DNA of 64,000 nt, taken from Gallionella sp. Its GTDB lineage: Bacteria > Pseudomonadota > Gammaproteobacteria > Burkholderiales > Gallionellaceae. The position numbers and the translations under genes are program-made. The stretch spans positions 13,338 through 77,337 of the forward strand of contig JBAZVL010000009.1 in assembly GCA_041660905.1 (NCBI GenBank), read 5' to 3'. Positions 5,112 through 63,207 of this stretch are shown one piece after another. Position 1 is the stretch's first letter. Every line of letters begins with the position of its first letter. The notes beneath the pieces are model-generated. The model did not search any database. It was not told the DNA's origin and saw only the letters and a program-made list of their open reading frames with translations.

Positions 5112-5188
5112 CCTGCTTCCTGCTTCCTGCTTCCTGCTTCCTGCTTCCTGCTTCCTGCTTCCTGCTTCCTGCTTCCTGCTTCCGGCTT
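5112..5188. repeat. Heptanucleotide microsatellite (CCTGCTT)x10 perfect plus one degenerate unit (CCGGCTT)
   Basis: Counted directly: units start at 5112 and recur every 7 nt to 5181, then CCGGCTT. It is intergenic, 50 bp from the thiolase-like ATG (minus strand) and about 250 bp upstream of the tpsB start. Confidence 0.95.
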
Positions 5189-14228: not shown

Positions 14229-14277
14229 ATTCGCTATTCGCTATTCGCTATTCGCTATTCGCTATTCGCTATTCGCT
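14229..14277. repeat. Heptanucleotide microsatellite (ATTCGCT)x7, perfect
   Basis: Counted directly. It begins 35 bp after the last pilus gene stop. A TGA at 14226-14228 immediately precedes it, and one frame stays open through it into ORF 14277-14483. Confidence 0.95.
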
Positions 14278-36114: not shown

Positions 36115-37275
36115 TTAAGCGGGCCATCCTGCATCAGCTTGCATCAGATAGTCCTTTTTCTTGTCCATGTCGGCATCCGTATCGACAAAGCGCCGGGCGA
36201 TGGTGCGAAACTCCTCTTGTATCTCCAGGAAGGCGTCCAGCATAGTGGCATCAAAATGGCTGCCTCGGCCTTCGCGCATAATCTGTACCGCCTTTTCATG
36301 CGACATGCCCGCTTTGTAGACGCGCCGACTGATCAACGCATCGTAAACATCGGCCACCGCCATCAGTCGCGCAGCGATAGGGATGTCATCGCCGGCTAAA
36401 CCTTCCGGATAGCCGCTGCCGTCCCATTTTTCCTGATGGGAGTAGGAGATAGACTTGGCCATGGTGAGGAACTCTACGCTGGTGCCCAGCGCCGTTTCAG
36501 CGTGCACGATGGCATCGCGTCCCAGCGTGGTGTGGGTTTTCATGATTTCAAACTCATGGGGTTCGAAACGCCCCGGTTTTAGCAGGATGCGATCGGGAAT
36601 GCCGACCTTGCCGATGTCGTGCAGCGGTGCCGATTTAAACAGCATATTGATGTTGCTGTCAGTCAAATACCAGGCAAATTTCGGATGGTCTTGTAACTTT
36701 TCGGCCAGCGCCTTGACATAAAACTGGGTGCGCCGTATATGGTTGCCGGTGTCGGAGTCGCGCGTTTCTGCCAAAGAGGCCATGGCCAAAATAGTCACAT
36801 CCTGAATAGCGCTCACTTCCAGAGTACGTTTGACGACCTCGCGTTCCAGGAACTCGTTTTGATCGCGCAAAAAACTCTCCATGGCGGTCAGCGCCAGATA
36901 GTTTTTGACGCGCGCCAGCACGATAGGGGGACTGATGGGTTTGGTGATGTAATCGACCGCGCCTAAGCTCAGCCCCGTCAACTCATCATCCATCTCGGAT
37001 TTTGCGGTCAGAAATATCACCGGAATATGCAAGGTTTTCGGATCGCGCTTGAGCTGCCGGCAGACCTCATAACCATCCAGTTCCGGCATCATGATGTCGA
37101 GCAGAATCAAGGCGGGCGGCGCGTCCGATCGTGCAATTTTCAGCGCCTTCTCGCCGCTGTTGGCAATTTTCACCTTGTAGTCATCGCAAAGCAGGTTGCT
37201 CATCAAAGTCAGATTGTCAGGGGCATCATCCACCACCAGGATCGTGGGCTTGTCGGTGAAACTAAAGGATTCCAT
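36115..37275 (-). CDS. Response regulator with HD-GYP c-di-GMP phosphodiesterase domain (RpfG-like)
   Basis: REC (ILVVDDAPDNL...LLDIMMPELDGYEV) plus HDIGKVGIPD and EKWDGSGYPEGL. ATG 37275 has the RBS GGAG and overlaps the upstream gene by 14 nt. Confidence 0.9.
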   Translation of the reverse strand: MESFSFTDKPTILVVDDAPDNLTLMSNLLCDDYKVKIANSGEKALKIARSDAPPALILLDIMMPELDGYEVCRQLKRDPKTLHIPVIFLTAKSEMDDELTGLSLGAVDYITKPISPPIVLARVKNYLALTAMESFLRDQNEFLEREVVKRTLEVSAIQDVTILAMASLAETRDSDTGNHIRRTQFYVKALAEKLQDHPKFAWYLTDSNINMLFKSAPLHDIGKVGIPDRILLKPGRFEPHEFEIMKTHTTLGRDAIVHAETALGTSVEFLTMAKSISYSHQEKWDGSGYPEGLAGDDIPIAARLMAVADVYDALISRRVYKAGMSHEKAVQIMREGRGSHFDATMLDAFLEIQEEFRTIARRFVDTDADMDKKKDYLMQADAGWPA

Positions 37276-40200: not shown

Positions 40201-41290
40201 TGATCTTGTTCATCACCTCCATCGCGGTATAGCCTAACATGCGCTCGGCACCGACGTTGAAAATCTGAATTACGCCATTGGCATCAGTGGCGATGCTGGA
40301 GAAGTTGGCACTGTTAAAAATGGCGCTCTGCAAGGCATCGGCTTTCAACAGCGCTTCTTCAGCCTGCTTGCGTGCGGTGTTGTCGGTGCCGATCAACAAA
40401 TAGCCGATGATGACATCCTGTGCATCGCGCAATGCGGTGACCGAAACGACTGCGGGGAAGCGGCTGCCATCCTTGCGGATATAAGTCAGCTCATAGATAT
40501 CTTCGATGCCGCGTGCCGCCTTGAACACCAGCGCTTCAAAGCCCGGCGTGATGGGCGTGCCCAGTTCTGCGCTCAGGGCTTCCGCGCGCACGATCACTTC
40601 CTGCGGGTCGGAGATGTCGGCCGGGGTGATCTTATTCATCACTTCCATCGCGGTGTAACCCAGCATACGCTCGGCACCGACGTTGAAAATCTGAATCACG
40701 CCACGGGCATCGGTGGCGATGCTGGAGAAATTGGCGCTGTTGAAGATCGCGCTCTGCAAGGCGCCCGCCTTGAGCAGGGCTTCTTCAGCCTGTTTTCGTG
40801 CGGTGTTGTCAGTGCCGATCAGCAAATAGCCGATGATGATATCCTGCGCATCTCTTAGGGCCGTGACCGAGACGACAGCGGGGAAACGGCTGCCATCCTT
40901 GCGGATATAGGTCAGCTCATAGATATCCTCAATGCCGCGCGCAGCCTTGAACACCAGCGCTTCAAAGCCCGGCGTGATGGGCGTGCCCAGTTCAATGCTC
41001 AAGGCTTCCGCGCGCACGATGACTTCCTGCGGGTCAGAGATATCGGCCGGGGTGATCTTATTCACCACTTCCAGCGCGGTGTAGCCTAACATGCGCTCGG
41101 CACCGACGTTGAAAATCTGGATCACTCCTTTGGCATCGGTGGCGATGCTGGAGAAATTGGCGCTGTTAAAAATAGCACTTTGCAGCGCCCCGGTTTTGAT
41201 CAGTGCTTCCTCGCGCTGAACCTCGGAGATGACATCCGCTATACCCGATGAAGGTTTGACCGCAATCGTGTCATAAATGGCTAGTGGCAT
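37262..41290 (-). CDS. Large hybrid sensor kinase: 3 near-identical PAS modules, a fourth PAS, HisKA, HATPase, 2 REC, Hpt
   Basis: H-box [14 protein letters not shown], two receiver domains ([12 protein letters not shown]; [13 protein letters not shown]) and a C-terminal Hpt (HTLKGASGNIGA). ATG 41290 has the RBS GAAGG; the ORF-track start at 41296 is a TTG. Confidence 0.9.
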   Translation of the reverse strand: MPLAIYDTIAVKPSSGIADVISEVQREEALIKTGALQSAIFNSANFSSIATDAKGVIQIFNVGAERMLGYTALEVVNKITPADISDPQEVIVRAEALSIELGTPITPGFEALVFKAARGIEDIYELTYIRKDGSRFPAVVSVTALRDAQDIIIGYLLIGTDNTARKQAEEALLKAGALQSAIFNSANFSSIATDARGVIQIFNVGAERMLGYTAMEVMNKITPADISDPQEVIVRAEALSAELGTPITPGFEALVFKAARGIEDIYELTYIRKDGSRFPAVVSVTALRDAQDVIIGYLLIGTDNTARKQAEEALLKADALQSAIFNSANFSSIATDANGVIQIFNVGAERMLGYTAMEVMNKITPADISDPQEVIVRAEALSIELDTQITPGFEALVFKASRGIEDIYELTYIRKDGSRFPAVVSVTALRDAQDVIIGYLLIGTDNTARKQVEEEQKKLDQRLRDQQFYTRSLIESNIDAITITDPAGIITDVNKQMEALTACTRDELIGAPFKNYFTDPDRAEAAIKQVLIKKKVPDYELTARARDGRKTVVSYNSTTFYDRDRKLQGVFSAARDVTERKRLDQVLREKNVELESAMSVAEKANLAKSDFLSNMSHEIRTPMNAIIGMSHLALKTELTPRQRDYINKIQGSGRHLLGIINDILDFSKIEAGKLTIEHTEFELEKVLDNVANLIAEKTASKGLELVFNVDRHVPLKLIGDQLRLGQILINYCNNAVKFTEQGEVGIIIRIKEQSDDSILLYCAVRDTGIGLNEEQIKQLFHRFSQADTSITRKFGGTGLGLVISKKLAELMGGEVGVESEPGRGSTFWFTAHMGKSSGQQRKLALSADLQGRRVLVVDDNENARLVLAELLGNMGLKVEQAQSGKTAIEAVSRADLIKKPFEIVFLDWQMPGMDGIETAKQLKYLPLEFIPHRMLLTSYGSEEVIRDAEAAGIEDVLIKPASASVLFDSVVRILGGVVDEQRIYGGAPSDTFLKLAGIEGAHILLVEDNDLNQEVATELLTDAGFIVDLAENGQLALEKLNSTDYDIVLMDMQMPVMDGVTATLNIRKQARFDQLPIVAMTANAMQGDRDRCMAAGMNDHVAKPIEPEELWKALLKWVKPHAALSAKNCVMTRAVQAAERVPVIDGLDTVNGLRRVLGKQSLYLSMLRTFVGGEKLTIQKIIKALDEHDWVTAERLVHTLKGASGNIGAGDLQHLAEKLETAIKQQQPRGEINLSIDALAAPLVQLIAQLEAQLPDEASKTAVTVDLQRLTLVCDKLTALLADDDSQASDLMLENADLLNAAFPAHYRRLSQSMNAFDFEKTLALLTEAVLYRTARSDHGIL
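39914..41191. repeat. Intragenic tandem triplication, 3 x 426 bp (142-aa PAS module)
   Basis: The unit GALQSAIFNSANFSSIATDA.GVIQIFNVGAERMLGYTA...LLIGTDNTARKQAEEALLKA occurs three times with only a few substitutions. DNA landmarks recur at about 39941, 40366 and 40795, a 426-bp period. Confidence 0.9.
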
Positions 41291-41552
41291 GTTCAACCTT
41301 CGTTTATATCAGTGTTACATAGACAAACTTGTACTCACCGGCGATTAAGACGCCCGGTTTGCAGATTTCTACCAGCGACTTAGCAACAGTACTGAAACAT
41401 GTTGAGGAGAACGTTAGACTGGTGTGCTTAAATTACGCGGAGCTACTTAGGGTGTCTGTACGCTGTCGCACACAGAAACGACGGGAGGGGAAAAGGGAGG
41501 CTGAATTTGGCTGTGCTGACGGGTTGGTGATCAATGCACGGAACTAGGGTAG

Positions 41553-46883: not shown

Positions 46884-47720
46884 TTAAAGCAGTTTTTCAA
46901 GGCCGGAACGGGTCACTTCCTTGCCTATGCCCCGGTAGCCGGTGTATCTGCCGGTCTGATCAAACATGGGTTCGCCGCTGACCATCATGTGCTGATGAGA
47001 CCCGTCTGAATTGACTCTGGAGTAGATAAAATCAAGGAAGGGGAGGCGGGCGGCCAGATATTCCAGCAGCAGCTCGCGTTCCTCCTCGTTCCAGATGGCG
47101 CCCTGATCGTCGCGGATACAGCCTGATTTCTCATCAGGTTGGATGCCCAACATGTCAAACACCGGACCAAAAATTCGGGTGAAATGGCCATTTTCGTCCT
47201 GTTCCCAATACCAGTCGGAAGACAGTTCGGTAAGACGGCGAAAACGCGCTTCACTGGCGCGCAGCTCGTTGGTGCGTTCCAGAACGGTCTGTTCCAGCAG
47301 CTTGTTTTGATTTTCCAGCTTCTTATGCAGCAGACGCACCTCTAGGATGTTGCGTATGCGCGTCTGAACTTCGGTTAGATCAAACGGTTTGGCGATAAAA
47401 TCTTTTGCACCCGCTGAGAGTGCGCGCAGTTTATGGTCGGGTTGAGCCGTGATGACTATGATGGGCAGATAATCATCCTCATTGATTTTTTTGAGTTTTT
47501 CCATCACCTGAAAGCCATCCATGCCGGGCATTTTCAGATCGAGCAGGATCAAATCGTAAGCGTGTTGACAGTGCAGGTCATACACGGCATAGGGATCCAT
47601 GGTGGAAGTAACACAGGTATAGCCAGAATCGCCGAGCAGTTCGCCAAGTAAAATGACATTGGACTGCTGATCGTCAACGATCAGTATGCTGGCTTTAAGA
47701 ATTTCCTGCTCGGTAATCAT
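46884..47720 (-). CDS. Response regulator, REC plus C-terminal PAS-like domain
   Basis: REC (ILIVDDQQSNV...LLDLKMPGMDGFQV...KPFD), a coiled-coil linker and a PAS-like SSDWYWEQDENGHFTRI...GYRGIGKEVT. ATGA overlap with the upstream kinase. Confidence 0.85.
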   Translation of the reverse strand: MITEQEILKASILIVDDQQSNVILLGELLGDSGYTCVTSTMDPYAVYDLHCQHAYDLILLDLKMPGMDGFQVMEKLKKINEDDYLPIIVITAQPDHKLRALSAGAKDFIAKPFDLTEVQTRIRNILEVRLLHKKLENQNKLLEQTVLERTNELRASEARFRRLTELSSDWYWEQDENGHFTRIFGPVFDMLGIQPDEKSGCIRDDQGAIWNEEERELLLEYLAARLPFLDFIYSRVNSDGSHQHMMVSGEPMFDQTGRYTGYRGIGKEVTRSGLEKLL

Positions 47721-49072
47721 GGGGGTTCTCCATTTTTTATTAATATATTCAACGTCTTATTGATATTTCGGGGGGTGGGGTCGCGTGTCAGCTCGATCCA
47801 GAATTCGCTGCCCACCCCGACTGTGCTTTTCACACCGATGCTGCCGCTCATCAGTTCTATGAGTTTCTTGGAAAATACCAAGCCGATGCCGGTGCCCTCC
47901 GTGGCGCTGTGTTCAAAGCCCAGACGGTTGAATGGCTGAAAAAGCTGGGCTATCTTCTCCTCCGGCAGTCCTTCGCCGCTGTCTTTGATGCCGATGCGGA
48001 TGTGTTCAATACCCGCCGTACATTCGACGACGATCTTGCCATTTTCACGGTTGTACTTGATGGCATTGTTAAGCAGGTTAATCAGCACCTGCTTTAAGCG
48101 GATGCGATCTGCATTGACCAGCCAGCTTTTATCGAAAGGGATAAATTCCAAATGGATGCCGTGTTGCTGCGCCTGCAAATCGATCAGGGTCTGGCATTCC
48201 AGCATCACTTCAGTCAATAAAATCGACTCGAGTGAGAGTGAAAGCTTGCCGGACTCGATGGTTGCCATATCTAGCGTTTCATTAATTAATTCAAGAAGAT
48301 ACCAGCCCGCCTTGCTAATTTGTTTCAATCTGGAGCTCTGCACCGTGGTGGGGGCGGGCGAACCGGATTCTAGCAGCTGGCTAAAGCCTAAAATGGTATT
48401 GAGCGGAGTGCGCAACTCATGGCTCATATTGGACAAAAATTCTGATTTGGCACGATTGGCTTTTTCCGCGACCAGTTTAGCGTTCTCCAATCGAGTCTGG
48501 GTGATTTGCAGTTGTTCGGTGAGCATTTGCGCTTCAATATTGGCAATTACCAGTCGTTCATTCACTTGTTGCAACAAAATGCTGTGGCGTTCGTTTGCAT
48601 CCTGACTGATCTGGGTTGCATCCTGCCTGATTCCCGTTGCATCCTGACTGGTCTGAGTGGCTTCCTGCCTGATTTCCGTTGCATTCTGGCTGGACTGTGT
48701 CGCCTCCTGACTGATTCCCGTTGCATCCTGGCTGGACTGGGTCGCCTCCTGACTTATTCCCGTTGCATTCTGGCTGGACTGGGTCGCCTCTTGACTGATT
48801 CCCGTTGCATCCTGGCTGGACTGGGTCGCCTCCTGGCTGATTCCCGTTGCATTCTGGCTGGACTGGGTCGCCTCCTGGCTAATTCCCGTTGCATCCTGAC
48901 TGGTTTGGGTTGCATCCTGTCTGATTCCGGTTGCCGTCTGCCGCTCAGCAATTGTCGTGTGCATATTCTTTTCACGCAAGTTGGCTATGACGCTAACGGT
49001 CATTACTGAAACACCTTCGTGTTGGCTGACTAAATCAGGTTCAGTCAGGTCATTCTGATCAACAAGCAGCAT
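47717..49072 (-). CDS. Cytoplasmic histidine kinase with an N-terminal array of 16 heptapeptide repeats
   Basis: H-box SHELRTPLNTILGF and an HATPase (GTGIGLVFSKKLIELMSG). No TM segment is evident. Residues 47-158 are AT..SQ(D/E/N) repeats. It starts 18 nt after the KaiC-like stop. Confidence 0.85.
   Translation of the reverse strand: MLLVDQNDLTEPDLVSQHEGVSVMTVSVIANLREKNMHTTIAERQTATGIRQDATQTSQDATGISQEATQSSQNATGISQEATQSSQDATGISQEATQSSQNATGISQEATQSSQDATGISQEATQSSQNATEIRQEATQTSQDATGIRQDATQISQDANERHSILLQQVNERLVIANIEAQMLTEQLQITQTRLENAKLVAEKANRAKSEFLSNMSHELRTPLNTILGFSQLLESGSPAPTTVQSSRLKQISKAGWYLLELINETLDMATIESGKLSLSLESILLTEVMLECQTLIDLQAQQHGIHLEFIPFDKSWLVNADRIRLKQVLINLLNNAIKYNRENGKIVVECTAGIEHIRIGIKDSGEGLPEEKIAQLFQPFNRLGFEHSATEGTGIGLVFSKKLIELMSGSIGVKSTVGVGSEFWIELTRDPTPRNINKTLNILIKNGEPP
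48599..48934. repeat. Coding tandem repeat, 16 x 21 bp (effectively 8 x 42 bp) encoding ATGISQE/ATQSSQ(D/N)
   Basis: Read from the translation: ATGIRQD ATQTSQD (ATGISQE ATQSSQN/D)x5 ATEIRQE ATQTSQD ATGIRQD ATQISQD. The DNA repeat is visible from 48599. Confidence 0.9.
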
Positions 49073-53656: not shown

Positions 53657-55597
53657 ATGAAAAAGCTTGAATGGTTGAGCAGACCGGTACAGTGGTTGAT
53701 AGCCTCGTTGCTGTTTGGATTAGTCGCATTATTTGCAGGATGCGGCGGAAGTGGTGCATCTGGTGTGTCAGCCCCCGCGCCGGGCAGTAGTTTGGGCGTA
53801 ACAGCTCCAAGTCCCACCGTGGTCGCTGTGGTCCCGCTCGCTGATGCAACAGGTGTGCCAGTCAATATCAAAAAGATAACGGCTGCTTTCAGCAACACGA
53901 TGGATTCTGTCACGTTGACCTCAGCGAATTTCACTCTGTCTTGTCCGGCTGCACCGGTTGCCGGTGGCGTTGTCAGTTATCTGGCGGCGGGTAATGTCGC
54001 AACATTATCGCTACCCGTAGCCAATCTTCCAGCGTCGACGCAATGCACGGTAACCGTGACCACCGGGGTGCGCGATGCAAGCGGTGTCGCGCTGGCGGGT
54101 AACTATGTGTGGAAATTTACTACCGGAATTGCGGCAGACACAGCGCCGCCGAGCGTCGCTTTGACGGTTCCCGTTGACGGTGTGACTGGTGTCGCAACCA
54201 ACACCATGGTGTCAGCTTCTTTTAGTGAAAACATGGATCCGGCGAGTATCACGGCAACCAGCTTCACGGTAGCAAACACGACAGCAGGGGGCGGGGCGGT
54301 AGTAGGGGCGGTCACCTATCTGCTGGGCTCTAAAGTCGCGACCTTTACGCCGGCAGCAACGTTGCCTGCCAGCAGTTTATATACGGTGACGATAAGCACG
54401 ACAGTCGCAGATTTGGCCGGAAACCTGATGGCGGCCAACAAGGTGTGGACTTTTACCACGGGGGCGGCTGCGGTAACCAGTGTTTTTCCGGGAGTGGCCG
54501 GAACGCCGGGCGCTTCTACCACTGATCCTACCGTAAACTCGGCTAACCCGAGCAATGGTGCGATCAACGTGGCGACCAGTACCAATCAATGGACGGGTTC
54601 GGCTAATGTGGTGACGGGTAAGCTGCTGACCGCAAACTTCAGCCAGACGATGAACCCGGCAACCATCACAACCCCGGGTGTTTTTACGCTCAAGGAAACG
54701 GTCGCCGGTACTAATGTGCCCGGTAGTGTGGTCATCAATGCCACGAATACTGCCGCGACCTTTACACCGACTGTCGCCGCTCTGATGCCGAATACATTTT
54801 ATACCGTCACTGTTTCGACTGCGGCGCTGAACGCGGGCGGCATGGCCATGGCGAATGCGGTGGTATGGGGGTTCAAAACCAACGGGGTGGCGTTAACTGA
54901 ACAAGCGCCCGTTGAACTTGGCAGCGCTGGAAATTACACGATTTTCGCACTTACCGGGATTGCCAATGCCACCACGCCGGCGGTCATTGCCGGAGACATG
55001 GGGGTGGGGCCTGGCGTGACATCTACGGCGATCACCGGTCCCTGGGCGTTAACCTTGCCCGCCGCAAGTGCATTTTCCACGTCGGCGCAAGTCAGCGGAA
55101 AAGTCTATGCTTTTGATTATGCCAACCCCACTCCGGCTTATGTAACGACAGCCGCTGCGGACATGAATGCCGCCTACAACGATGCTTTTGGCCGGACTGC
55201 CGCTGTCGGTGCTGCGTTCTTGAATGTCGGCGGCGGATCGCTGAGCGGATTAACGTTGCCGCCCGGAACTTACACCTGGGGTAGCGCCGTTACCTTGCCA
55301 TTTGGCACTAACCTCACGCTGGCAGGTGGCCCTGATGATGTCTGGATTTTCCAGATTAGCGGAACACTGACCACCGCCGCGAATACCAATGTATTTCTCA
55401 GTGGCGGCGCGCGCGCCAAAAATGTGTTCTGGCAGACGTCAGGTGCCGTAACGCTGGGCGCTACCGCACACATTGAAGGGGTGGTGCTGTCTAAGACTGC
55501 GATAAATTTTGGCAATCAGGCGACGGCGAACAGCCGGTTGCTGGCGCAAACCGCCGTCAATCTTGATCAGAATGCCGTCGCACAACCCGTTCCGTAA
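53657..55597 (+). CDS. Lipoprotein with three Ig-like (SbsA/Big_5-type) domains and a C-terminal DUF3494 ice-binding-like beta-solenoid domain
   Basis: Lipobox LFAGC. Repeated P..GATGV..N..I.A.FS..MD modules. C-terminal LGSAGNYTIFALTGI..., LPPGTYTWGSAV, DVWIFQISGTLTTAANTNV, AKNVFWQTSGAVTLGATAHIEGVVLSKTAI and SRLLAQTAVNLDQN match the DUF3494 pattern. Confidence 0.8.
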   Translation: MKKLEWLSRPVQWLIASLLFGLVALFAGCGGSGASGVSAPAPGSSLGVTAPSPTVVAVVPLADATGVPVNIKKITAAFSNTMDSVTLTSANFTLSCPAAPVAGGVVSYLAAGNVATLSLPVANLPASTQCTVTVTTGVRDASGVALAGNYVWKFTTGIAADTAPPSVALTVPVDGVTGVATNTMVSASFSENMDPASITATSFTVANTTAGGGAVVGAVTYLLGSKVATFTPAATLPASSLYTVTISTTVADLAGNLMAANKVWTFTTGAAAVTSVFPGVAGTPGASTTDPTVNSANPSNGAINVATSTNQWTGSANVVTGKLLTANFSQTMNPATITTPGVFTLKETVAGTNVPGSVVINATNTAATFTPTVAALMPNTFYTVTVSTAALNAGGMAMANAVVWGFKTNGVALTEQAPVELGSAGNYTIFALTGIANATTPAVIAGDMGVGPGVTSTAITGPWALTLPAASAFSTSAQVSGKVYAFDYANPTPAYVTTAAADMNAAYNDAFGRTAAVGAAFLNVGGGSLSGLTLPPGTYTWGSAVTLPFGTNLTLAGGPDDVWIFQISGTLTTAANTNVFLSGGARAKNVFWQTSGAVTLGATAHIEGVVLSKTAINFGNQATANSRLLAQTAVNLDQNAVAQPVP

Positions 55598-57163: not shown

Positions 57164-58357
57164 TCAAACATCGAACTTCATGGCGATGGCGTTCAAATGT
57201 CCTGCTGCTGCGACCATGCGCTGTGCATCTGAGAGGCATTTGTTGGTGTAGCTGGTGACTTTGTCGGTGTTGGTTTCATTTTCCGCGATGCGCGCCAATA
57301 CAATGCCGACCAGCATCTGCTGGTCATCGGCCGCATCGCGGACGGCTTCGACGGTGCGCTTCATGTCTGAGGTGGCTTTTTCAATCTGCACAAAGGTTTC
57401 CGAAGAATGGCGTGAAGCTTCCAGGCCGACTCTCACCGCGTTGGCATTTTCATCTGAAAGCAGCACCGTTGAAGCGACATCTAAGCTGACCCGTTGCAGT
57501 ACCGTGTCGATACGGCGGGTAGCCTGAGCCGCCTGTTCGGAGAGCTTTCTGACCTCATCTGCCACCACGGCAAAGCCGCGACCTTGTTCGCCTGCGCGTG
57601 CGGCTTCGATGGCTGCATTGAGTGCGAGCAGATTGGTCTGATCGGCAATGGCGCGGATGTCGGCGATGGCGGCCTCGACTTCTTTTGCGCTGGATTTAAG
57701 GCTGGCGGCATTCGCCGAAATTTTCCCGCTGGCGGCATCGAGGGCTGAAATCGCCTGTTCGGTTGCCTGTACATGCAGGACGCCGTTGCACACCAGTTCG
57801 TCGGCGGAGGCGGCGCTATTTCCCGCATCTCCTGACAATGACAAGATGCTTTCTGCCTCATCCGCCATGCCATGCACGACCTTGATGATTTCATGTGCAT
57901 TGGTATGGTATTCGTTCATGTTATCGCCTAAGGATGACATGGCGGTGACGATCTCTTTGGCGGCGCTGTCGACCGAGTTGGCCGATTGCGCCATGTCGCT
58001 CAGGGTAGATCTTAAACTGTTGGTCATGGCGTCAAAGCCTTCGGTGATTTCGCCTACCGTATCCATGCTGCGCACGCCGCAGCCTTCACGCAGATCGCCT
58101 TTACCTATGCGTGCGGAGGCTAAAGCGACGAGTTTGAGTTTGCTGATTAACTGCCATTCGATGAGCTTGTAGTTGAACAGGCCGATGGTGATGCCGGACA
58201 CAACACAGCCGACGCAGAACCAGAGCAGCATACCTTCTTTCCAGACCACGAAGAAATTGGCGTAGAAGGGGAAGACCATACCCATGGACAGGCCGAAACC
58301 CAAAAAGGACAGTTTTAACCGTCCGAGTATCGAAGAGGCCTCCGCGCGATTGGTCAT
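57164..58357 (-). CDS. Methyl-accepting chemotaxis protein (short membrane-anchored form)
   Basis: Two N-terminal TM segments with almost no periplasmic loop, a HAMP-like region, and the highly conserved signalling hairpin [33 protein letters not shown]. Confidence 0.88.
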
Positions 58358-58387: not shown

Positions 58388-59260
58388 TTAATCAGGTAAA
58401 AGCGCGCTTATCCTATCCAAGAAGCGCGCGCGATACAAGAGGCGAGGGTGGGTGGCGTCATCGATAAAAGCCTCTCTGTCATGCAGTACATTGTTGCACA
58501 ACAGTCCCATGCCCGATTCCAGGGTGCCACGATAGATATGTTCGTTGTCTGAGGCTAAGATCATTTCAAGCTGTTTAACAGCGGCGAGCGTATCCGGGTG
58601 CCATACTATGCTGCGGGTTCGGGCGGTATATCTCATGTGGAGCTGCCCGTTCCGTACCGAAAATACCGGGCCGGACTGTGCGGCGCGCGCCACACCGTGT
58701 TCATCGGTGCGTTCAGGAATGGTCATGGCGTTCGCGCTGGAGAGGACGCGGATATAGTCCGGGTTCGCATCGCGCAGCCGTAAATAGGCCATTTCATGAT
58801 CCATGAGGCGGTTTTCGCCGCCTTGCCCCGCGCGATGCACACAATGTAAAACCATGCCGAGGATATCTCGTTCAGGCGGGTTGTAGTAACCGTCCGTATG
58901 CCATTTAATCGGCCGATCGGTATATGGAATATATTGCTGGCGCGTTCCCTTGTCGAACACGCGAATTTCAGAAATCCCGTCACCATCAGCCAGCCAGTTG
59001 GCATCGAGATGTTCGAGTCCAAACTGTTTGCCGAGCAGACGGGGAATCTGGGTGTCTGCAATTTTCACCGGACTGGCATAGATTGCCATATTGCAGTTAC
59101 GGATGCGCTGACTCAATGCTTCGTGCTCTGAGGGAAGCAGCGCGCGCGGGTCGCGAACGTGAATGATCAGATCTTCGATGCTGCGCGGTGCACAGGATAA
59201 TTTACCCTCCCGCCAGCGCAGGTAGGCGTCATTATCCTCAAGGTCAAATGGATTTGCCAT
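58388..59260 (-). CDS. TauD/TfdA-family Fe(II)/2-oxoglutarate dioxygenase-like protein
   Basis: About 290 aa with an H-x-D motif in IKWHTDGYY and overall TauD-like character. ATG 59260 lies 1 nt after the upstream TAA; the ORF-track TTG is at 59269. Confidence 0.65.
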   Translation of the reverse strand: MANPFDLEDNDAYLRWREGKLSCAPRSIEDLIIHVRDPRALLPSEHEALSQRIRNCNMAIYASPVKIADTQIPRLLGKQFGLEHLDANWLADGDGISEIRVFDKGTRQQYIPYTDRPIKWHTDGYYNPPERDILGMVLHCVHRAGQGGENRLMDHEMAYLRLRDANPDYIRVLSSANAMTIPERTDEHGVARAAQSGPVFSVRNGQLHMRYTARTRSIVWHPDTLAAVKQLEMILASDNEHIYRGTLESGMGLLCNNVLHDREAFIDDATHPRLLYRARFLDRISALLPD

Positions 59261-59261
59261 G

Positions 59262-59876
59262 TTAATCAATGGCTTGTGCTGGTCTTGCTCGCGCGGGGCG
59301 AACCGGGCGCGGCTTGCGCAGTTCGGTGCTGGATAAATCGCGCATGGTTTTCTCCAGCATCTTGACCGCTTCCGGTGCTTCTATGCTCATCATCTGGTCG
59401 GTGATCCAGATGCTGTCGCGCTCGCCCATGTGTGAAGCGATGCAATAAGCCAGATAGCGCAGAAAGGCAAATTCGGGGCCGGACTCGGTGTAGCTAAATT
59501 CAGCATATTCATCCGCGCGCTGATTCAGCTTGTCGATAAACTGCTGTTTGCATTCAGCGATCGTTCCGCCTAGCAATCGACTCTGGTTTTCAGCATAGGT
59601 CTCTGCCAGTCGGTTCGCTAAAGTGGTCGTGAATTCGATGCGGCCGTCCGGTAAAAACTGGCGATAGGCGATCCGATCGGCTACCTGCACCAGAAATACC
59701 AGCACTTCACTCAAGAACAGGAAGTATTCCTCCCCTACGTCGATGGAGAAATGGGCCAGACGTGTCTGCTTGAGTACGTTGTCGCCGATACGCCAGGCAA
59801 CAAACGACAGCGCATCGGCAATTTCTTGCGGAGACTTTGATCGCCCACTTTGATACCAATTGCTTTTGATGCGCAT
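59262..59876 (-). CDS. Hypothetical protein (204 aa)
   Basis: A clean ORF 17 nt downstream of the tandem-TusA gene with an Arg/Pro-rich tail. No family was recognised. Confidence 0.55.
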   Translation of the reverse strand: MRIKSNWYQSGRSKSPQEIADALSFVAWRIGDNVLKQTRLAHFSIDVGEEYFLFLSEVLVFLVQVADRIAYRQFLPDGRIEFTTTLANRLAETYAENQSRLLGGTIAECKQQFIDKLNQRADEYAEFSYTESGPEFAFLRYLAYCIASHMGERDSIWITDQMMSIEAPEAVKMLEKTMRDLSSTELRKPRPVRPARARPAQAID

Positions 59877-59893: not shown

Positions 59894-60379
59894 TCAGGCT
59901 TTTTGCAGGAAAAACTCAAATTCACCCGCGCCGATACTGACGGTGCTGATGATTTTAACGCCAGTCATATCAGACCATCCGATGATGTCAGTCTGTATCC
60001 CGGGGCAATTGCTCACCAGTTTCAGGATTTCGCCGCTATTCATACCGTTCAACAGTTTTTTGGCTTCAACAATCGGGCCGGGGCACACAACGCCACGGAT
60101 ATCCAGAATCACGTTAGCCGCCAGTTCGATCCCTTTGCCCTTCATGATATAAAAACCCGTACCGCCATCCGTCATCGGTTCGGTTTTAACTACCTGATTG
60201 TCGGTTTGTTCAGCCCACGAGAATAGGTCATCCTTCGTGCCTGGACAATCGGAGATCAAGAGCAGAATTTGCTCATCCTGCAGGTCCTTGACCAGGCGCT
60301 TTGCACCCAGCAGCGGAGCCGGACAGCTCAAGCCGCGCATATCCAGTTTGACGTTGGCGTGTATAGTATTTTGGCTCAT
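59894..60379 (-). CDS. Tandem TusA-domain sulfur carrier (two TusA/SirA-like domains in one polypeptide)
   Basis: There are two copies of the TusA active-site motif: LDMRGLSCPAPLLGAKR and LDIRGVVCPGPIVEAKK (Cys-Pro-x-Pro). 161 aa. Confidence 0.8.
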   Translation of the reverse strand: MSQNTIHANVKLDMRGLSCPAPLLGAKRLVKDLQDEQILLLISDCPGTKDDLFSWAEQTDNQVVKTEPMTDGGTGFYIMKGKGIELAANVILDIRGVVCPGPIVEAKKLLNGMNSGEILKLVSNCPGIQTDIIGWSDMTGVKIISTVSIGAGEFEFFLQKA

Positions 60380-60407: not shown

Positions 60408-60737
60408 TTAATACCCGCCCTTACCTAATGGCTGGGGCAAGCCGGCTACTTTGGCTGCTTGTTTGGCAGGTCCCAGTGGGAACAGGTCGTAGAGTGCCTT
60501 GCTGTCAGCTTCTGGCCAGAATTCATTCACGGCCTTGAGCATATTGCGGAAATTCGGGGTTGCACCGTTTTCACGATATTCCTCACGCATGAAGTTGATG
60601 ATTTCCCAGTGCTTGGGGGTTAATTCAAGATTTTCGGCTGCGGCAATCACTTCCACCGCCTCGTCGCTAAAATCCGCTTCAAGTAAAAAACCGTCATCAT
60701 TGCATTCCACTTCAGTGCCGCCGATCAGATATCCCAT
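60408..60737 (-). CDS. DsrC/TusE-family protein lacking both conserved C-terminal cysteines
   Basis: LELTPKHWEIINFMREEY...LYDLFPLGPAKQAAKVAGLPQPLGKGGY aligns with DsrC ...GPAKQAC.FAGLPKPTGCV. ATG 60737 has the RBS GGAGAGG; the ORF track extends to 60827. Confidence 0.8.
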   Translation of the reverse strand: MGYLIGGTEVECNDDGFLLEADFSDEAVEVIAAAENLELTPKHWEIINFMREEYRENGATPNFRNMLKAVNEFWPEADSKALYDLFPLGPAKQAAKVAGLPQPLGKGGY

Positions 60738-60777: not shown

Positions 60778-61380
60778 TTATTCCAGACTGGAAATAACTT
60801 TGTAAGGTACAAAAATTCCGCAACCAAACTGACGTGATTCGCCCAATCCGTGGTGTTGCAGCTTCATGGACGCTTCCGGTGTTAAATCATGTAATACCAG
60901 ACTATAGCCGTTGATTTGCTGTGCAGGGCCACTCAGCGTGTGCCGCTTGCCGCAGATAATCTTGCCGGAAATACCCATTTGCGTAAACTGTTGATTGATT
61001 TCATTGATAAAGCGCATTTCATCGGCGTCACCCGTCACCAGTTGAGCGTGTATGGTAGGGTAATATTTAATGGCGCGATGCTTACACACGCCCAGCTTGA
61101 GTTGGTTGCCCGAAACATTCAATTGCCGGCCTGATAAAGCTGCGGCGGTGTCGGCCAAATCAGAGGGTATGCGCAACACTAGTTTGGCGCGTTTGGGTAA
61201 CGAGGCGGTCACGCTCTGCTCGATGCTGCGCAGGGGCAGTACACCGATATTCGGATGGGCTGACAGCGCCGGTACCAGCTGGCACAGGGTATCCCACAAC
61301 TCGAACGGATAGTCTGCCGTGAGCATCTGGCCTTCCAAATCAAAAACAAGATCGATGATGTTGGTCGCGGTATGGCTCAT
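60778..61380 (-). CDS. Cas6/Cmx6-like (type I-MYXAN Cas6 family) RAMP protein, orphan
   Basis: 200 aa. The N-terminus is IDLVFDLEGQMLTADYPFELW and the C-terminal glycine-rich loop is LQHHGLGESRQFGCGIFVPY, as I recall for Cmx6-type Cas6. Recognition is from memory only, with no profile search. Confidence 0.55.
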   Translation of the reverse strand: MSHTATNIIDLVFDLEGQMLTADYPFELWDTLCQLVPALSAHPNIGVLPLRSIEQSVTASLPKRAKLVLRIPSDLADTAAALSGRQLNVSGNQLKLGVCKHRAIKYYPTIHAQLVTGDADEMRFINEINQQFTQMGISGKIICGKRHTLSGPAQQINGYSLVLHDLTPEASMKLQHHGLGESRQFGCGIFVPYKVISSLE

Positions 61381-61592
61381 TTGTTGTCTTGTCCGTCAGC
61401 CCACTCTGTCATCGCGGACGCCCAAAGGCGTGCGGTGGCAGGATCGATATCGAAAATCGTAAAACGCCTAGCCTCGCGTATGCGTATGCGCATCAGACTC
61501 ATGCCGCCTTCCACGTGGACAATTTGCTGCAGGTCAATTTCCTGACCACCCAATGGAACTTTAAAGCTGTGTAGCGGGATTATCTCAGACAT
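61377..61592 (-). CDS. Hypothetical small protein (71 aa) translationally coupled to the Cas6-like gene
   Basis: Its stop overlaps the Cas6-like ATG (ATGA at 61377-61380). ATG is at 61592, with an alternative TTG at 61601. No family was recognised. Confidence 0.45.
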   Translation of the reverse strand: MSEIIPLHSFKVPLGGQEIDLQQIVHVEGGMSLMRIRIREARRFTIFDIDPATARLWASAMTEWADGQDNK

Positions 61593-61700
61593 GGGTAACA
61601 AGTTTGGATTATAGACCGTGGTAGTTTAGATCAAAATGCATGACCGAAATGTAAGTTGTGAGTCTAGTGCTTAAAGTGCGTAAGTTCAAATACTAGTATG

Positions 61701-61718
61701 GGGTAGGAATACCTACCC
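61701..61718. promoter_or_regulatory. 18-bp palindrome GGGTAGG-AATA-CCTACCC in the divergent dsrA / Cas6-like-operon intergenic region
   Basis: A perfect 7-bp inverted repeat read directly, about 110 nt from the small-ORF ATG and about 195 nt from the dsrA ATG. It is an operator candidate only. Confidence 0.3.
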
Positions 61719-61872
61719 TAAAGGGTTATAAAAAATACCCGCTCAGGGTGATGGTGTGAGTGGCGCTAGCACGTACAATGGCGGCATATTTTGAGCGATG
61801 GGATGCGCTGGTTATTACGCGACTCACCCCAAAGGTATCACAGGTTCCCGTCTTAGCCGGGTTATTAAATAG

Positions 61873-61890
61873 TTGCCCCGGTTGGGGCAA
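61873..61890 (+). promoter_or_regulatory. Stem-loop TTGCCCC-GGTT-GGGGCAA in the dsrA leader
   Basis: A 7-bp stem with a GGTT loop, ending 21 nt before the dsrA ATG and 10 nt before the AAGGAAG RBS. Confidence 0.3.
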
Positions 61891-61911
61891 AGCAACGAAA
61901 AGGAAGACATC

Positions 61912-63207
61912 ATGGCGAAAAAGCTGCATGACACCCCGAATCTCGATGAGCTGGAAAAAGGCGAATGGCCTAGTTTTGTAACTGGCCTTAAGGAACTTGC
62001 AAAGGAAAAAGATTACGTAGTTGATCTTTTGGGTCAGCTGGAAACTTCTTACAAGAACCGTAAGGGTTACTGGAAGGGTGGTACGGTTGGTGTGTACGGC
62101 TACGGCGGTGGTGTTATTCCTCGCTTTACCGAACTGAAGGATGAGGCTGGTCAGCCGGTGTTTAAAGATGCCGCTGAGTTTCATACTATCCGCGTGATGC
62201 CGCCCCCAGGTATGCACTACGATACCGCTATCCTGCGTAAGTTCTGCGATATCTGGGATCAGCACGGTTCAGGTCTGATTGCGTTTCACGGTCAATCCGG
62301 CGATATCATGTTCCAGGGTGCGACGACTGAAAACGTTCAAAAAGCCTTTGATGAAATCAATGAGTTGGGTTTCGATCTGGGTGGCGCGGGTCCTGCTGTA
62401 CGTACTTCCATGTCTTGCGTGGGTGCTGCGCGTTGCGAGCAGTCATGCTACGACGAGGCGCGTGCACATCGTTCCGTGTTGAACACCTTCCTGGACGATA
62501 TTCACCGTCCATCGCTGCCATACAAATTTAAGTTCAAGTTCTCCGGTTGCCCGAATGACTGTATGGACTCTGTGCAGCGTGCAGACATGGCTGTGATCGG
62601 TACATGGCGCGATAACATCCGCACCGATGAAGGTCTGGCGAAGAAGTGGTTTGCTAAGCACGGTATGGATGAACTGGTAAATGACGTGGTTGCGCGTTGC
62701 CCGACCAAGACTTTCCAGGTTAAAGAAATTGGCAAGATCAAGGCTGGCGAGCATATCTCCAGCGTAGCGGTCAGCGATACACATGCCGTTGAAATCAACA
62801 ATCAGGATTGCGTACGTTGTATGCACTGTATCAATGTTATGACAGGCGCGCTGGCGACCGGAACTGACAAGGGTGCAACAGTTCTGATCGGTGGTAAGAG
62901 CCATCTGAAGATCGGTGGATTGATGGGTACGGTGGTTATTCCTTTCATCAAACTCGATACCGAAGAAAATGTTGAAAAACTGGTTGATTTCGCACAGCGC
63001 ACGATCGAGTTTTTTGCAGAAAATGCACTGGAACATGAGCGTACCGGTGAAATGATCGAGCGTATTGGTTTGGCTAATTTCCTGGATGCCATGGAAATCG
63101 ATGTAGATCCAGCCATGGTAAGTTCGCCACGCATGAATCCGTATGTTCGTACGGATGGATGGGATGACGAAGTTGCTAAGATTAATGCCAAGAAGCAAGC
63201 CGCCTGA
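61912..63207 (+). CDS. dsrA: Dissimilatory sulfite reductase alpha subunit (oxidative/reverse-type DsrA)
   Basis: MAKKLHDTPNLDELEKGEWPSFVTGLKE... is typical of DsrA. Siroheme/FeS Cys clusters are present (SCVGAARCEQSC; FSGCPNDC) along with a ferredoxin-like insert (CVRCMHCINV). Confidence 0.93.
   Translation: MAKKLHDTPNLDELEKGEWPSFVTGLKELAKEKDYVVDLLGQLETSYKNRKGYWKGGTVGVYGYGGGVIPRFTELKDEAGQPVFKDAAEFHTIRVMPPPGMHYDTAILRKFCDIWDQHGSGLIAFHGQSGDIMFQGATTENVQKAFDEINELGFDLGGAGPAVRTSMSCVGAARCEQSCYDEARAHRSVLNTFLDDIHRPSLPYKFKFKFSGCPNDCMDSVQRADMAVIGTWRDNIRTDEGLAKKWFAKHGMDELVNDVVARCPTKTFQVKEIGKIKAGEHISSVAVSDTHAVEINNQDCVRCMHCINVMTGALATGTDKGATVLIGGKSHLKIGGLMGTVVIPFIKLDTEENVEKLVDFAQRTIEFFAENALEHERTGEMIERIGLANFLDAMEIDVDPAMVSSPRMNPYVRTDGWDDEVAKINAKKQAA

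Follow-up and report, generated by a model that had tools for sequence, protein, structure and literature searches.

A Cas6/Cmx6-family protein encoded next to the dsrAB genes of a Gallionella species was found to belong to a large, old and CRISPR-independent clade of dsr-linked proteins, and a CRISPR-free Cas6 has very probably been exapted and dedicated to the dsr locus. This protein represents an undescribed second life for a Cas protein, present in many betaproteobacteria. A first-pass annotation of the 64-kb stretch of DNA analyzed here (hereafter the window) had supposed that such a case was new; in agreement with this, our literature search found neither a CRISPR-free Cas6 relative in a dsr locus nor a paper on a CRISPR-independent Cas6-fold protein in the Dsr pathway.

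Identification of a Cas6/Cmx6-family protein

The ORF of interest (N-terminus ...NIIDLVFDLEGQMLTADYPFELWD; C-terminus ...LQHHGLGESRQFGCGIFVPYKVISSLE) had been noted for its resemblance to Cas6 of the I-MYXAN (Cmx6) type, a resemblance borne out by Pfam, TIGR02807, the PDB match and an AF2 model. It matched Pfam PF09559 over its full length (E=1.1e-52, 179 bits; cutoff 26.7) and scored 136.9 bits against TIGR02807 (an equivalog model; cutoff 98.85), and PADLOC Cas6 models matched it at 7.6e-53. The best PDB sequence match was 8fcj_B (E=2.9e-14); chain B of 8FCJ and 8FCU is the Cas6 subunit in the Cascade of a type I-B CAST. The AF2 model (pLDDT 95.8) superimposed on 8fcj_B/8fcu_B with a TM of 0.87-0.88 and an rmsd of 2.0 Å, followed by many Cas6/Cas6e structures, and the predicted fold contained both elements anticipated by the first-pass annotation, that is, two tandem RRM/ferredoxin-like domains and a C-terminal glycine-rich loop. 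On the basis of profile matches and the model, the ORF is a bona fide Cas6/Cmx6-family protein, with a resemblance far beyond chance. It should be noted that annotation pipelines name these proteins 'type I-MYXAN CRISPR-associated protein Cas6/Cmx6'.

Organization of the accessory operon

The features of the locus are listed in Table 1. The layout described at first pass, including the ATGA overlap and the short gaps, could be confirmed for every gene.

Table 1 Features of the Cas6-like cassette and of the divergent dsr control region in the window
Feature	Position	Strand	Remarks
Terminator-like hairpin	58307-58324	(-)	Near the TauD-like gene
TauD/TfdA-family Fe(II)/2-oxoglutarate dioxygenase-like gene	58388-59260	(-)	PF02668, E=1.4e-15; 1-nt gap; last core member
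Conserved orphan protein, 204 aa	59262-59876	(-)	Core cassette; 17-nt gap
Tandem TusA-TusA sulfur-carrier gene	59894-60379	(-)	PF01206 twice, E=6.8e-35; 28-nt gap
DsrC/TusE/RspA-family gene, 109 aa	60408-60737	(-)	PF04358, E=5.5e-32; 40-nt gap
Cas6-like gene, 200 aa	60778-61380	(-)	Cmx6/PF09559 family, CRISPR-independent dsr-linked clade
DUF6967 partner, 71 aa from ATG	61377-61592	(-)	PF22295, E=6e-28
Divergent control region	61593-61911		Several blocks conserved in at least 75-90% of about 80 loci
Operator-like inverted repeat ACCC-TTTA-GGGT	61715-61726		Right half overlapped by palindrome 61701-61718
Second operator-like inverted repeat ACCC-TGAGC-GGGT	61737-61749		Conserved spacer blocks
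Hairpin TTGCCCC-GGTT-GGGGCAA (7 bp, 4-nt loop)	61873-61890	(+)	dsrA leader, 21 nt upstream of ATG
dsrA, reverse-type dissimilatory sulfite reductase alpha subunit	61912-63207	(+)	First gene of the divergent dsr operon

The stop codon of the DUF6967 gene overlaps the ATG of the Cas6-like gene. The DUF6967 ORF would encode 74 aa if started at TTG 61601; in other loci, gene callers start it at the ATG (71 aa). The DsrC-like neighbor had been described as lacking cysteine. This held for the C-terminus, where both redox cysteines are missing from the arm ...GLPQPLGKGGY, but one Cys is present near the N-terminus. Across loci, the C-terminus reads invariantly GLPQP[L/Y/K]GKGGY and the last 15 residues are free of Cys in 148 of 149 cases. 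This protein, which is very acidic (median pI 4.7), is thus not a DsrC sensu stricto, as defined by two C-terminal Cys (...PKPTGCV).

The tandem TusA retains both CPxP cysteines and is an optional member, occurring in most Gallionellaceae-type loci and missing from all 80 divergent-clade loci. The 204-aa protein, with no match in Pfam, NCBIfam, PADLOC or PDB, is kept at 40-66% identity in both clades. A Cas1 remnant was considered for it and rejected: its faint PDB matches (E 0.13-0.5) were no better than that to allophycocyanin, and no Pfam Cas1 match occurred among 25 members of the family. The TauD-like protein shows weak similarity to trimethyllysine and gamma-butyrobetaine dioxygenases, and its WHTD iron-binding motif was found in 85 of 100 loci.

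Recurrence beside dsrAB without CRISPR

The distribution of the cassette was surveyed in 9 metagenome loci, 80 species-level genomes and 80 divergent metagenome contigs, plus the loci L093 and L183. Wherever the flanks permitted, the order DUF6967-Cas6-(DsrC-like)-[TusA-TusA]-204-aa protein-TauD, divergent from dsrA, was found in all of the approximately 170 loci, in which Cas6 identity ranged from 28 to 100% and the Cas6-like proteins were accompanied throughout by dsr and sulfur-relay genes. The divergent neighbor in each locus was 72-94% identical to the window dsrA and carried Pfam NIR_SIR annotations. The neighborhood survey suggested at first pass therefore showed the Cas6-like/DUF6967 pair recurring next to dsrAB in every related locus examined. 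One divergent-clade locus came from a Polaromonas MAG. Another homolog (P0210), on a 3-kb contig, had an AAA/NB-ARC-TPR protein upstream.

As had been stated from the sequence, the window contained no repeat-spacer array and no other cas gene; the latter held for all of its 36 large ORFs, and no Rfam CRISPR-DR match was obtained either. The sole match of the array search, at 48.6 kb, was a 42-bp in-frame tandem repeat. The ±10-kb surroundings of 96 loci, together 1.48 Mb, likewise contained no CRISPR array or cas gene.

Divergence from CRISPR-linked Cmx6 proteins

The CRISPR-linked Cmx6 proteins were located on cyanobacterial plasmids in complete operons (cas6-cas3-cmx8-cas7-cas5-cas1-cas2). 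They formed a separate clade in a neighbor-joining tree, which only 4 of the best 144 representatives joined. The median pI of the dsr clade was 7.2 with a net charge of 0, whereas that of the CRISPR-linked relatives was 9.4 with a net charge of +6.5. Four basic residues conserved in CRISPR-linked Cmx6 (R112, K117, R129 and K181) were lost in the dsr clade, and five residues (E120, C142, G143, H163 and K193) were invariant in 170 dsr-clade sequences and absent from the CRISPR-linked relatives. R63 is a further invariant residue gained by the dsr clade. Common to both clades were R69, S170 and Q174 as well as the glycine-rich loop (G177, G179, R182, G185, C186, G187 and F189). Gene context, phylogeny and surface charge all failed to place the dsr-linked protein in a type I-D/I-MYXAN/I-B CRISPR-Cas system.

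Position 23, at the start of helix α1 (motif A-D-H-N/G-Y), is His in seven of the eight CRISPR-linked proteins; we take this His23 to be the putative catalytic residue, as assigned by its position. Tyr or His occupied the position in about 90% of sequences: the window and 80 of 89 Gallionellaceae-type loci have Tyr, and 60 of 80 divergent-clade loci have His. Among 73 unique divergent-clade sequences, nine carry A, F, S or C there, which makes a conserved nuclease function unlikely. An apparent Y/H covariation between positions 23 and 192 was rejected, because it is explained by phylogeny and no covariation was observed within clades.

The DUF6967 partner

DUF6967 lies directly upstream of the Cas6-like gene in every locus with enough flank, and it was missing from the CRISPR-linked Cmx6 operons examined. 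Its invariant core (HxEGGMSLxRIRIRExKRFTIFDIDPxTA) is rich in Arg, and its AF2 model (pLDDT 91.4) has a ββββα topology. The best fold matches were PUR repeats and Whirly proteins, with non-significant Foldseek E-values (0.3-1.5) and a TM of 0.61-0.67 to the query, or 0.74 to Pur-alpha repeat III. Topology and size agree with PUR/Whirly, whereas there is no sequence similarity, and no Pfam PurA, Whirly or DUF3276 match was obtained in 40 DUF6967 members at E<=10.

Control region and searches for RNA elements

The spacer between the dsrA ATG (61912, (+)) and the cassette measures 319 bp, or 310 bp if the TTG is taken as the DUF6967 start. The conserved blocks may include a σ70-like promoter, TTGAAC (61684-61689)-N17-TAGACT (61661-61666). 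The perfect palindrome reported at first pass in this spacer was indeed present, two such sequences being found; however, the 7+4+7 palindrome GGGTAGG-TATT-CCTACCC at 61701-61718 is not itself conserved and overlaps a DNA operator-like repeat. The repeat pattern, ACCC-N4/5-GGGT, occurred at 2.37 per kb in the spacers versus 0.043 per kb elsewhere (55-fold). It lies 100-150 bp upstream of DUF6967 and was seen in both clades, with 78 of 139 spacers carrying it. Since the ACCC/GGGT pairs are invariant and show no covariation, they fit a site in DNA rather than a stem in RNA. The cassette is divergent from dsrABEFHCMKL... via a shared control region with operator-like sites, so that co-regulation with sulfur oxidation is most likely. 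On thiosulfate, Sideroxydans lithotrophicus ES-1 induces its dsr operon (PMC8788666). Judging from synteny, this strain presumably carries the cassette (presumed orthologs Slit_1687-1692, which lie between dsrA, Slit_1686, and sox, Slit_1696).

Searches of both leaders, that of dsrA and that of the cassette, for a conserved covarying hairpin gave none (RNAalifold consensus -1.3 and -2.5 kcal/mol), the leader MFE z-scores (-0.30 and -0.64 versus -0.01 for the control) did not support structure, and Rfam at permissive thresholds returned nothing relevant for the window and three loci. A conserved structure in the cassette 5' region was discarded, as only the DNA-operator CCC/GGG was predicted there, without covariation. 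The dsrA-leader hairpin (TTGCC...GGCAA) was present in window-type and Gallionella-type clades and missing from Sideroxydans-type loci; we regard it as a candidate, clade-specific RNA element and as a lead only. In type I-D repeats, the terminal stem is followed by ACTGAAAC. Most dsrA leaders show ...GGGCAACGCG-ACTGAAAG-GAAG, and the window has ACGAAAAG. A CRISPR-repeat-like element in the dsrA leader was nevertheless rejected: the actual repeats of CRISPR-linked Cmx6 loci differ (GATGCC-N4-GGCGT-TGAGCAC), the hairpin is clade-specific, and neither RNAalifold nor shuffling z-scores support it.

Proposed role and alternative explanations

We tentatively propose that the Cas6-like protein and DUF6967 act as an RNA-binding regulatory module on dsr or sulfur-relay mRNAs, a reading that is plausible but falls somewhat short of probable. 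The Cas6-like protein and the translationally coupled DUF6967 would form a complex that binds nucleic acid, most likely RNA, to which the former may contribute its retained glycine-rich loop together with the invariant R69 and R182, and the latter its Arg-rich β-sheet. By recognizing a specific transcript, the module could tune how strongly dsr or sulfur-relay mRNAs are expressed or how stable they are, and it would more probably be a binder or chaperone than an efficient nuclease. The retained loop, the mostly Tyr/His position 23, the co-occurrence of DUF6967, the enrichment of operator-like repeats and the induction of dsr in ES-1 are consistent with this reading; against it stand the failure to find a covarying hairpin or an Rfam match, the loss of basic charge and the non-significance of the PUR-like match. 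A more specific version, which we consider unlikely, is that of a domesticated sequence-specific RNA-recognition module that processes or protects the leader of the dsr mRNA, or hands a specific RNA to the sulfur-relay and dioxygenase enzymes of the cassette for modification.

The new invariant residues C142, H163, E120 and K193 may hint at a different chemistry. They are central to an explanation at the protein level, possible although somewhat unlikely, in which the Cas6 fold would serve sulfur trafficking as an adaptor or carrier without RNA: together with the ancestral C186, these residues would form a site for binding or modifying the GKGGY arm of the DsrC-like protein, or for taking sulfur from TusA. 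The loss of the basic charge and of four conserved Arg/Lys residues would suit such a role, as would the invariance of these four residues and G143 in the dsr clade and not in the CRISPR-linked relatives, the strict linkage to a DsrC-like protein whose invariant arm is Cys-free, and the fact that the searches found no RNA element; according to the strand register of the model, C142 and H163 should also share a face on neighboring strands. However, no part of the protein is better conserved than the glycine-rich loop, a hallmark of RNA binding by Cas6, the partner DUF6967 resembles a nucleic-acid binder in its predicted fold, and TusA is dispensable, being absent from the whole divergent clade.

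The operator-like repeats raise another explanation, in which one or more of the DUF6967, Cas6-like and DsrC-like proteins would bind ACCC-N4/5-GGGT as a transcription factor and control the divergent promoters. We consider this improbable. The repeats are conserved and strongly enriched between the operons of both clades, no classical regulator gene was seen within the cassette, and single-stranded DNA, like RNA, is a ligand of PUR/Whirly-like folds; moreover, DsrC of Allochromatium vinosum reportedly binds dsr promoter DNA. On the other hand, we know of no Cas6-fold protein that acts as a sequence-specific regulator binding double-stranded DNA, the DsrC-like protein is strongly acidic, and a symmetric palindrome of 12-13 bp suits a dimeric HTH factor of the classical type, whose gene may lie elsewhere. 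Finally, an ordinary crRNA-processing Cas6 that serves a distant CRISPR-Cas locus in trans and lies near dsr by chance would agree with the pipeline name 'type I-MYXAN' Cas6/Cmx6, with the score above the TIGR02807 equivalog cutoff and with a view of this genome that spans 64 kb. This explanation is extremely improbable in the face of an identical dsr context in about 170 loci despite Cas6 identities as low as 28%, the separation from the CRISPR-linked clade, the absence of arrays within ±10 kb of any locus checked, the loss of charge, conserved basic residues and (in the window) His23, and the tight coupling to DUF6967, a gene missing from the CRISPR-linked operons examined.

Significance

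These results would add a new kind of exaptation, that is, a lone Cas6 without other CRISPR parts, maintained by purifying selection across hundreds of species for a role in housekeeping or energy metabolism. They also have a practical consequence: every dsr-clade member is misannotated as 'type I-MYXAN CRISPR-associated', so that CRISPR counts come out too high for Gallionellaceae and related MAGs. In addition, a conserved accessory operon of five genes, with a shared operator, is defined next to dsrAB of betaproteobacterial sulfur and iron oxidizers, for which we found no earlier description, and it offers candidate regulators of the rDsr pathway, whose control is poorly understood. If the RNA-recognition reading is true, dissimilatory sulfur oxidation would have a direct link to RNA metabolism, and this would be the first Cas protein to serve as a dedicated post-transcriptional part of an energy-metabolism pathway.

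Comparison with known systems

The DsrC/TusE/RspA family has been divided such that RspA-type members lack the redox cysteines (PMC8477390). The DsrC-like neighbor resembles these in its PF04358 fold family and in the missing C-terminal Cys, and differs from them in its own invariant arm (GLPQPxGKGGY) and in its obligatory linkage to the Cas6-like protein and DUF6967. To our knowledge, this linkage has not been described before. In A. vinosum, the accessory dsr genes dsrR and dsrS are reportedly implicated in post-transcriptional control of dsr expression, DsrR being IscA-like. The same job is proposed here for the Cas6-like/DUF6967 pair, likewise small accessory proteins encoded with dsr; however, DsrR and DsrS have unrelated folds and are encoded inside the dsr operon, whereas the pair belongs to a divergent cassette, and no homology is implied.

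With the Cas6/Cmx6 proteins of type I-D/'I-MYXAN' and I-B CAST systems, the dsr-clade protein shares the family, the double RRM/ferredoxin fold (TM 0.88), the loop G-x-G-x2-R-x2-G-C-G-x-F-x-P and the residues D22, R69, S170 and Q174. Unlike them, it invariably belongs to a dsr-accessory operon that includes DUF6967, is neutral and has its own invariant residues. Known family members such as Synechocystis Cas6-1 cut the repeat hairpin 8 nt from its 3' end (PMC5741207), and the Cas6-1 paper does not define the catalytic residues of Cmx6; no such hairpin substrate was detectable at the dsr loci.

CASTs, type IV systems, the Streptomyces I-E/STAND module and haloarchaeal HRAMP are exapted or derived CRISPR modules (PMC8730458), and no case of Cas6 in energy metabolism is among the exaptations reviewed there. 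Like the dsr-linked Cas6, they are used outside immunity and have lost the adaptation genes and sometimes the arrays. Yet they keep multi-subunit Cascade-like effectors and occur in defense or mobile-element contexts, whereas the dsr case consists of a single Cas6 at a chromosomal energy-metabolism locus.

Identification of a Cas6-family protein beside dsrAB

The 200-aa protein encoded next to dsrA, for which the first-pass annotation had proposed a Cas6/Cmx6 identity, belongs to the Cas6 family. It matched Pfam PF09559 'Cas6' over its full length (E=1.1e-52) and NCBIfam TIGR02807 cas6_cmx6 with 136.9 bits (cutoff 98.85), and the PADLOC Cas6 models concurred. Its closest solved relative by sequence was 8fcj_B, the Cas6 subunit of the type I-B CAST Cascade (E=2.9e-14), and the alignment spanned the full length, G-rich loop included. 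The AlphaFold2 model (pLDDT 95.8, pTM 0.90; 51-sequence alignment as input) superimposed on 8fcu_B/8fcj_B with a TM of 0.87-0.88 and an rmsd of 2.0 Å, followed by classical Cas6 and Cas6e structures. Profile, sequence and predicted-structure comparisons all bore out the proposed identity.

The ORFs were exactly as previously described, with the Cas6-like ATG overlapping the stop of its upstream partner (ATGA), and, given the position of dsrA on the other strand, the divergent spacer is 319 bp long. The earlier view that nothing else in the 64 kb is CRISPR-related also held, as the window contained no repeat-spacer array and no Rfam match, and its 36 large ORFs included no further cas gene.

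Features of the cassette and the dsrA spacer
Feature	Position	Strand	Description
Cas6-like ORF	60778-61380	-	200 aa; N-terminus MSHTATNIIDLVFDLEGQMLTADYPFELWD; C-terminus LQHHGLGESRQFGCGIFVPYKVISSLE
DUF6967 ORF	61377-61592	-	71 aa counted from ATG
DsrC-like gene	60408-60737	-	40-nt gap after Cas6-like
Tandem TusA gene	59894-60379	-	28-nt gap after DsrC-like
Unknown gene	59262-59876	-	204 aa; 17-nt gap after TusA
TauD-like gene	58388-59260	-	1-nt gap after 204-aa gene
dsrA start	61912	+	Strand opposite the cassette
ACCC-N4/5-GGGT inverted repeats	61737-61749, 61715-61726		Between divergent dsrA and cassette promoters; same positions in the homologous loci L002-L183

Several other features of the window were observed. 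A 42-bp tandem repeat at 48595-48934 (8.1 copies, 88% matches), in frame within the 451-aa ORF 47717-49072(-), codes for a 14-residue protein repeat; it is not a CRISPR array. A 426-bp tandem repeat at 39930-41184 (2.9 copies, 87% matches) lies within the 1344-aa ORF 37262-41296(-) and probably reflects serial duplication of PAS-type sensor domains in a large signalling protein. Two heptanucleotide microsatellites, each perfect or nearly so, CCTGCTT x11 (5112-5188) and ATTCGCT x7 (14229-14277), lie within intergenic regions or close to them and may act as slipped-strand phase-variation switches. One large ORF matched the PADLOC 'HNH' type II restriction-enzyme model (E=1e-118), and others matched SduA/DUF4263-like and ZorB/MotB-like models. 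The gene at 53657-55597(+) encodes a secreted protein of 646 aa with Big_5 Ig-like repeats and is probably the source of an Ice_binding-like match (PF11999, E=2.6e-57), a domain not usually seen in freshwater sulfur or iron oxidisers.

Occurrence and conservation of the cassette

Hundreds of Cas6-like relatives were found (840 matches in one search; 985 clusters at 50% identity in another). All readable neighbourhoods had an identical layout: DUF6967 directly upstream, genes for a 109-aa DsrC-like, an orphan ~200-aa and a TauD-like protein downstream, and dsrA divergent at ~450-600 bp, followed by dsrBEFHCMKL and further genes. This layout was confirmed by tblastn in 80 species-representative genomes of Gallionella, Sideroxydans, Sideroxyarcus and other Nitrosomonadales or Burkholderiales MAGs (Cas6 identity 39-60%), and the same was seen in 80 metagenome contigs from a divergent sub-clade (only 28-39%), one named member of which is a Polaromonas MAG. 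The pairing beside dsr noticed in a single window is recurrent. Small ORF, Cas6 and DsrC were still in order around four cluster representatives of 30-35% identity (P0138, P0150, P0230 and P0269). Because the tandem TusA was confined to the window's clade, the core cassette comprises five genes. Cas6 was its fastest-evolving member (28-60% identity vs 72-94% for DsrA, 56-83% for DsrC-like and 46-76% for DUF6967). Across 1.48 Mb of homologous loci, no CRISPR-like array was found. A DNA search with the encoded pattern GCG[IL]F[VIM]P[HY]K matched at least 593 species genomes; as the pattern holds the clade-specific Lys193, we infer that most of them carry the dsr-type protein.

The Cas6-like protein is independent of CRISPR and under purifying selection. 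Together with DUF6967 it is a fixed member of an operon of five to six genes, whose control region is shared with the dsr operon and which spans a wide range of betaproteobacterial sulfur and iron oxidisers. The genomic pattern is very robust.

In the window, a methyl-accepting chemotaxis protein gene (57164-58357(-)) comes next after the cassette. About one-third of Gallionellaceae-type loci have it at the same position (66-80% identity), a hint that taxis may be connected with this sulfur locus.

Comparison with CRISPR-linked Cmx6

Genuine CRISPR-linked Cmx6 proteins were found on cyanobacterial plasmids, at 22-32% identity, within cas6-cas3-cmx8-cas7-cas5-cas1-cas2 operons with arrays. They formed their own clade in an NJ tree, and of the 144 top representatives just 4 grouped with it. 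One protein grouping there, P0210 (2396-3031 of locus L092), lies on a short contig downstream of a gene for a 714-aa AAA/NB-ARC and TPR (STAND-like) protein (2-2146) and may represent another non-canonical Cas6 context.

Both groups share F12, G16, D22, R69, G83, S170 and Q174 as well as the entire G-rich loop (G177, G179, R182, G185, C186, G187, F189 and P191). R112, K117, R129 and R145 were invariant only in CRISPR-linked Cmx6, which also has K181 (7/8 sequences) and His23 (7/8), the latter where helix α1 begins, within the motif A-D-H-N/G-Y. Among the dsr-type proteins, the window's clade has Tyr at position 23 and the divergent clade has mostly His; 9 of 73 sequences from the latter carry A, F, S or C instead. 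R63, E120, C142, G143 and K193 were specific to the dsr clade and invariant over 170 sequences, with H163 in 169; by the strand register of the model, C142 and H163 should be neighbours on adjacent strands. CRISPR-linked Cmx6 was strongly basic (median pI 9.37, net +6.5), whereas the dsr clade had a median pI of 7.19 and net 0 (window protein, pI 7.07). Thus, the dsr clade has kept the hallmark RNA-binding loop, while much of its basic surface is gone and new invariant polar residues have appeared.

Other cassette proteins

The partner protein is a Pfam DUF6967 member (E=6e-28) and is more conserved than the Cas6-like protein, with the invariant core HxEGGMSLxRIRIRExKRFTIFDIDPxTA. Its predicted structure is ββββα (pLDDT 91.4). 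The recurrent best fold matches were Pur-alpha PUR repeats (TM 0.61-0.67; 0.74 relative to repeat III) and Whirly proteins, at non-significant E values of 0.3-1.5. PUR repeats and Whirly proteins both bind single-stranded nucleic acid. No sequence support for such a relation was found, and the modelled likeness is a lead only.

The C-terminal arm of the DsrC-like protein was essentially invariant (GLPQP[L/Y/K]GKGGY; 149 loci; window 60408-60440), and 148 of these loci lacked Cys there. Where DsrC ends in ...TGCV, this arm carries a conserved Lys and finishes in Gly-Gly-Tyr; the protein, which belongs with RspA-type family members, cannot perform DsrC thiol chemistry. The TauD-like protein retains the WHTD iron-binding motif (85/100 loci) and shows weak similarity to the dioxygenases of trimethyllysine and gamma-butyrobetaine; given the conserved Lys, modification of this residue of the arm by the co-encoded enzyme is a possibility. 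For the 204-aa protein, Pfam, NCBIfam, PADLOC and PDB gave no match, and it represents an orphan family; its faint Cas1 matches were noise.

Control region and candidate RNA targets

The perfect palindrome reported in the first-pass annotation is present, and the spacer holds two perfect ones of the 7-4-7 type. The reported one, at 61701-61718, was not conserved as such and only overlaps the right half-site of a different element, the ACCC-N4/5-GGGT inverted repeat at 61715-61726. Spacer blocks were conserved in 75-90% of loci, and two of these blocks are the inverted repeats. The repeats occurred at 2.37 per kb in spacers vs 0.043 per kb elsewhere (55-fold enrichment), in both clades and at a constant 100-150 bp from DUF6967. 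Their pairs were invariant and without covariation, as would suit a DNA operator bound by a dimeric regulator but not an RNA stem; they probably bind such a regulator of the Dsr regulon. The other conserved blocks are consistent with a putative σ70-like cassette promoter, TTGAAC-N17-TAGACT.

The other palindrome (61873-61890) forms a dsrA leader hairpin, TTGCCCC-GGTT-GGGGCAA, 21 nt before the ATG. A TTGCC...GGCAA stem occurred in many loci; it was clade-specific and missing from Sideroxydans-type loci; the repeats of real Cmx6 systems differ from it in appearance. RNAalifold yielded only a weak 4-bp stem in dsrA leaders, and leader folding energies (139 loci) were not convincingly below dinucleotide shuffles (mean z of -0.30 for dsrA, -0.64 for the cassette and -0.01 for the control). 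Rfam gave nothing for an RNA target, and the cassette 5' region had no covarying structure. No RNA substrate was identified by these searches.

The window ends inside dsrB. In locus L003, the dsrB-dsrE spacer contains a near-perfect stem-loop of ~75 nt (7011-7090), which drew spurious miRNA-like Rfam matches and might influence mRNA stability or attenuation inside the dsr operon.

Possible functions

The retained G-rich loop is consistent with a Cas6-like protein that would form an RNA-binding module with DUF6967 and act on dsr or relay transcripts at the post-transcriptional level, more probably by binding them than as an efficient nuclease. This is the most likely reading, held at somewhat less than even confidence. 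A protein-level adaptor or sulfur-relay role that would use the new invariant Cys/His site is rather unlikely but deserves serious weight. A DNA-level regulator working at the ACCC-N4/5-GGGT operators is a further alternative, which we consider improbable. A genuine CRISPR Cas6 working in trans would agree with the family assignment, but the homologous loci are free of arrays and the CRISPR-linked proteins form a separate clade; we give it hardly any credence.

Annotation and relation to known systems

Databases auto-name all members, including all those at NCBI, 'type I-MYXAN CRISPR-associated protein Cas6/Cmx6', which is functionally misleading, and this systematic mis-annotation will inflate CRISPR-Cas counts in these lineages. 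For the protein clusters P0004/P0415 (86% identical to the window protein), one source calls a 200-aa member 'CRISPR-associated endonuclease/helicase Cas3'.

No description of this system turned up in literature searches on Cmx6, DUF6967, stand-alone or exapted Cas6, or Cas6 together with DsrC or dsrAB, and the cassette genes go unmentioned in the papers on the Gallionellaceae pangenome and the ES-1 transcriptome. A 2022 review of Cas exaptations covers CASTs, type IV systems, the Streptomyces I-E/STAND module and HRAMP, and a solo Cas6 in a metabolic locus is absent from it (PMC8730458). What is new here is a Cas6-family protein in a CRISPR-free role.
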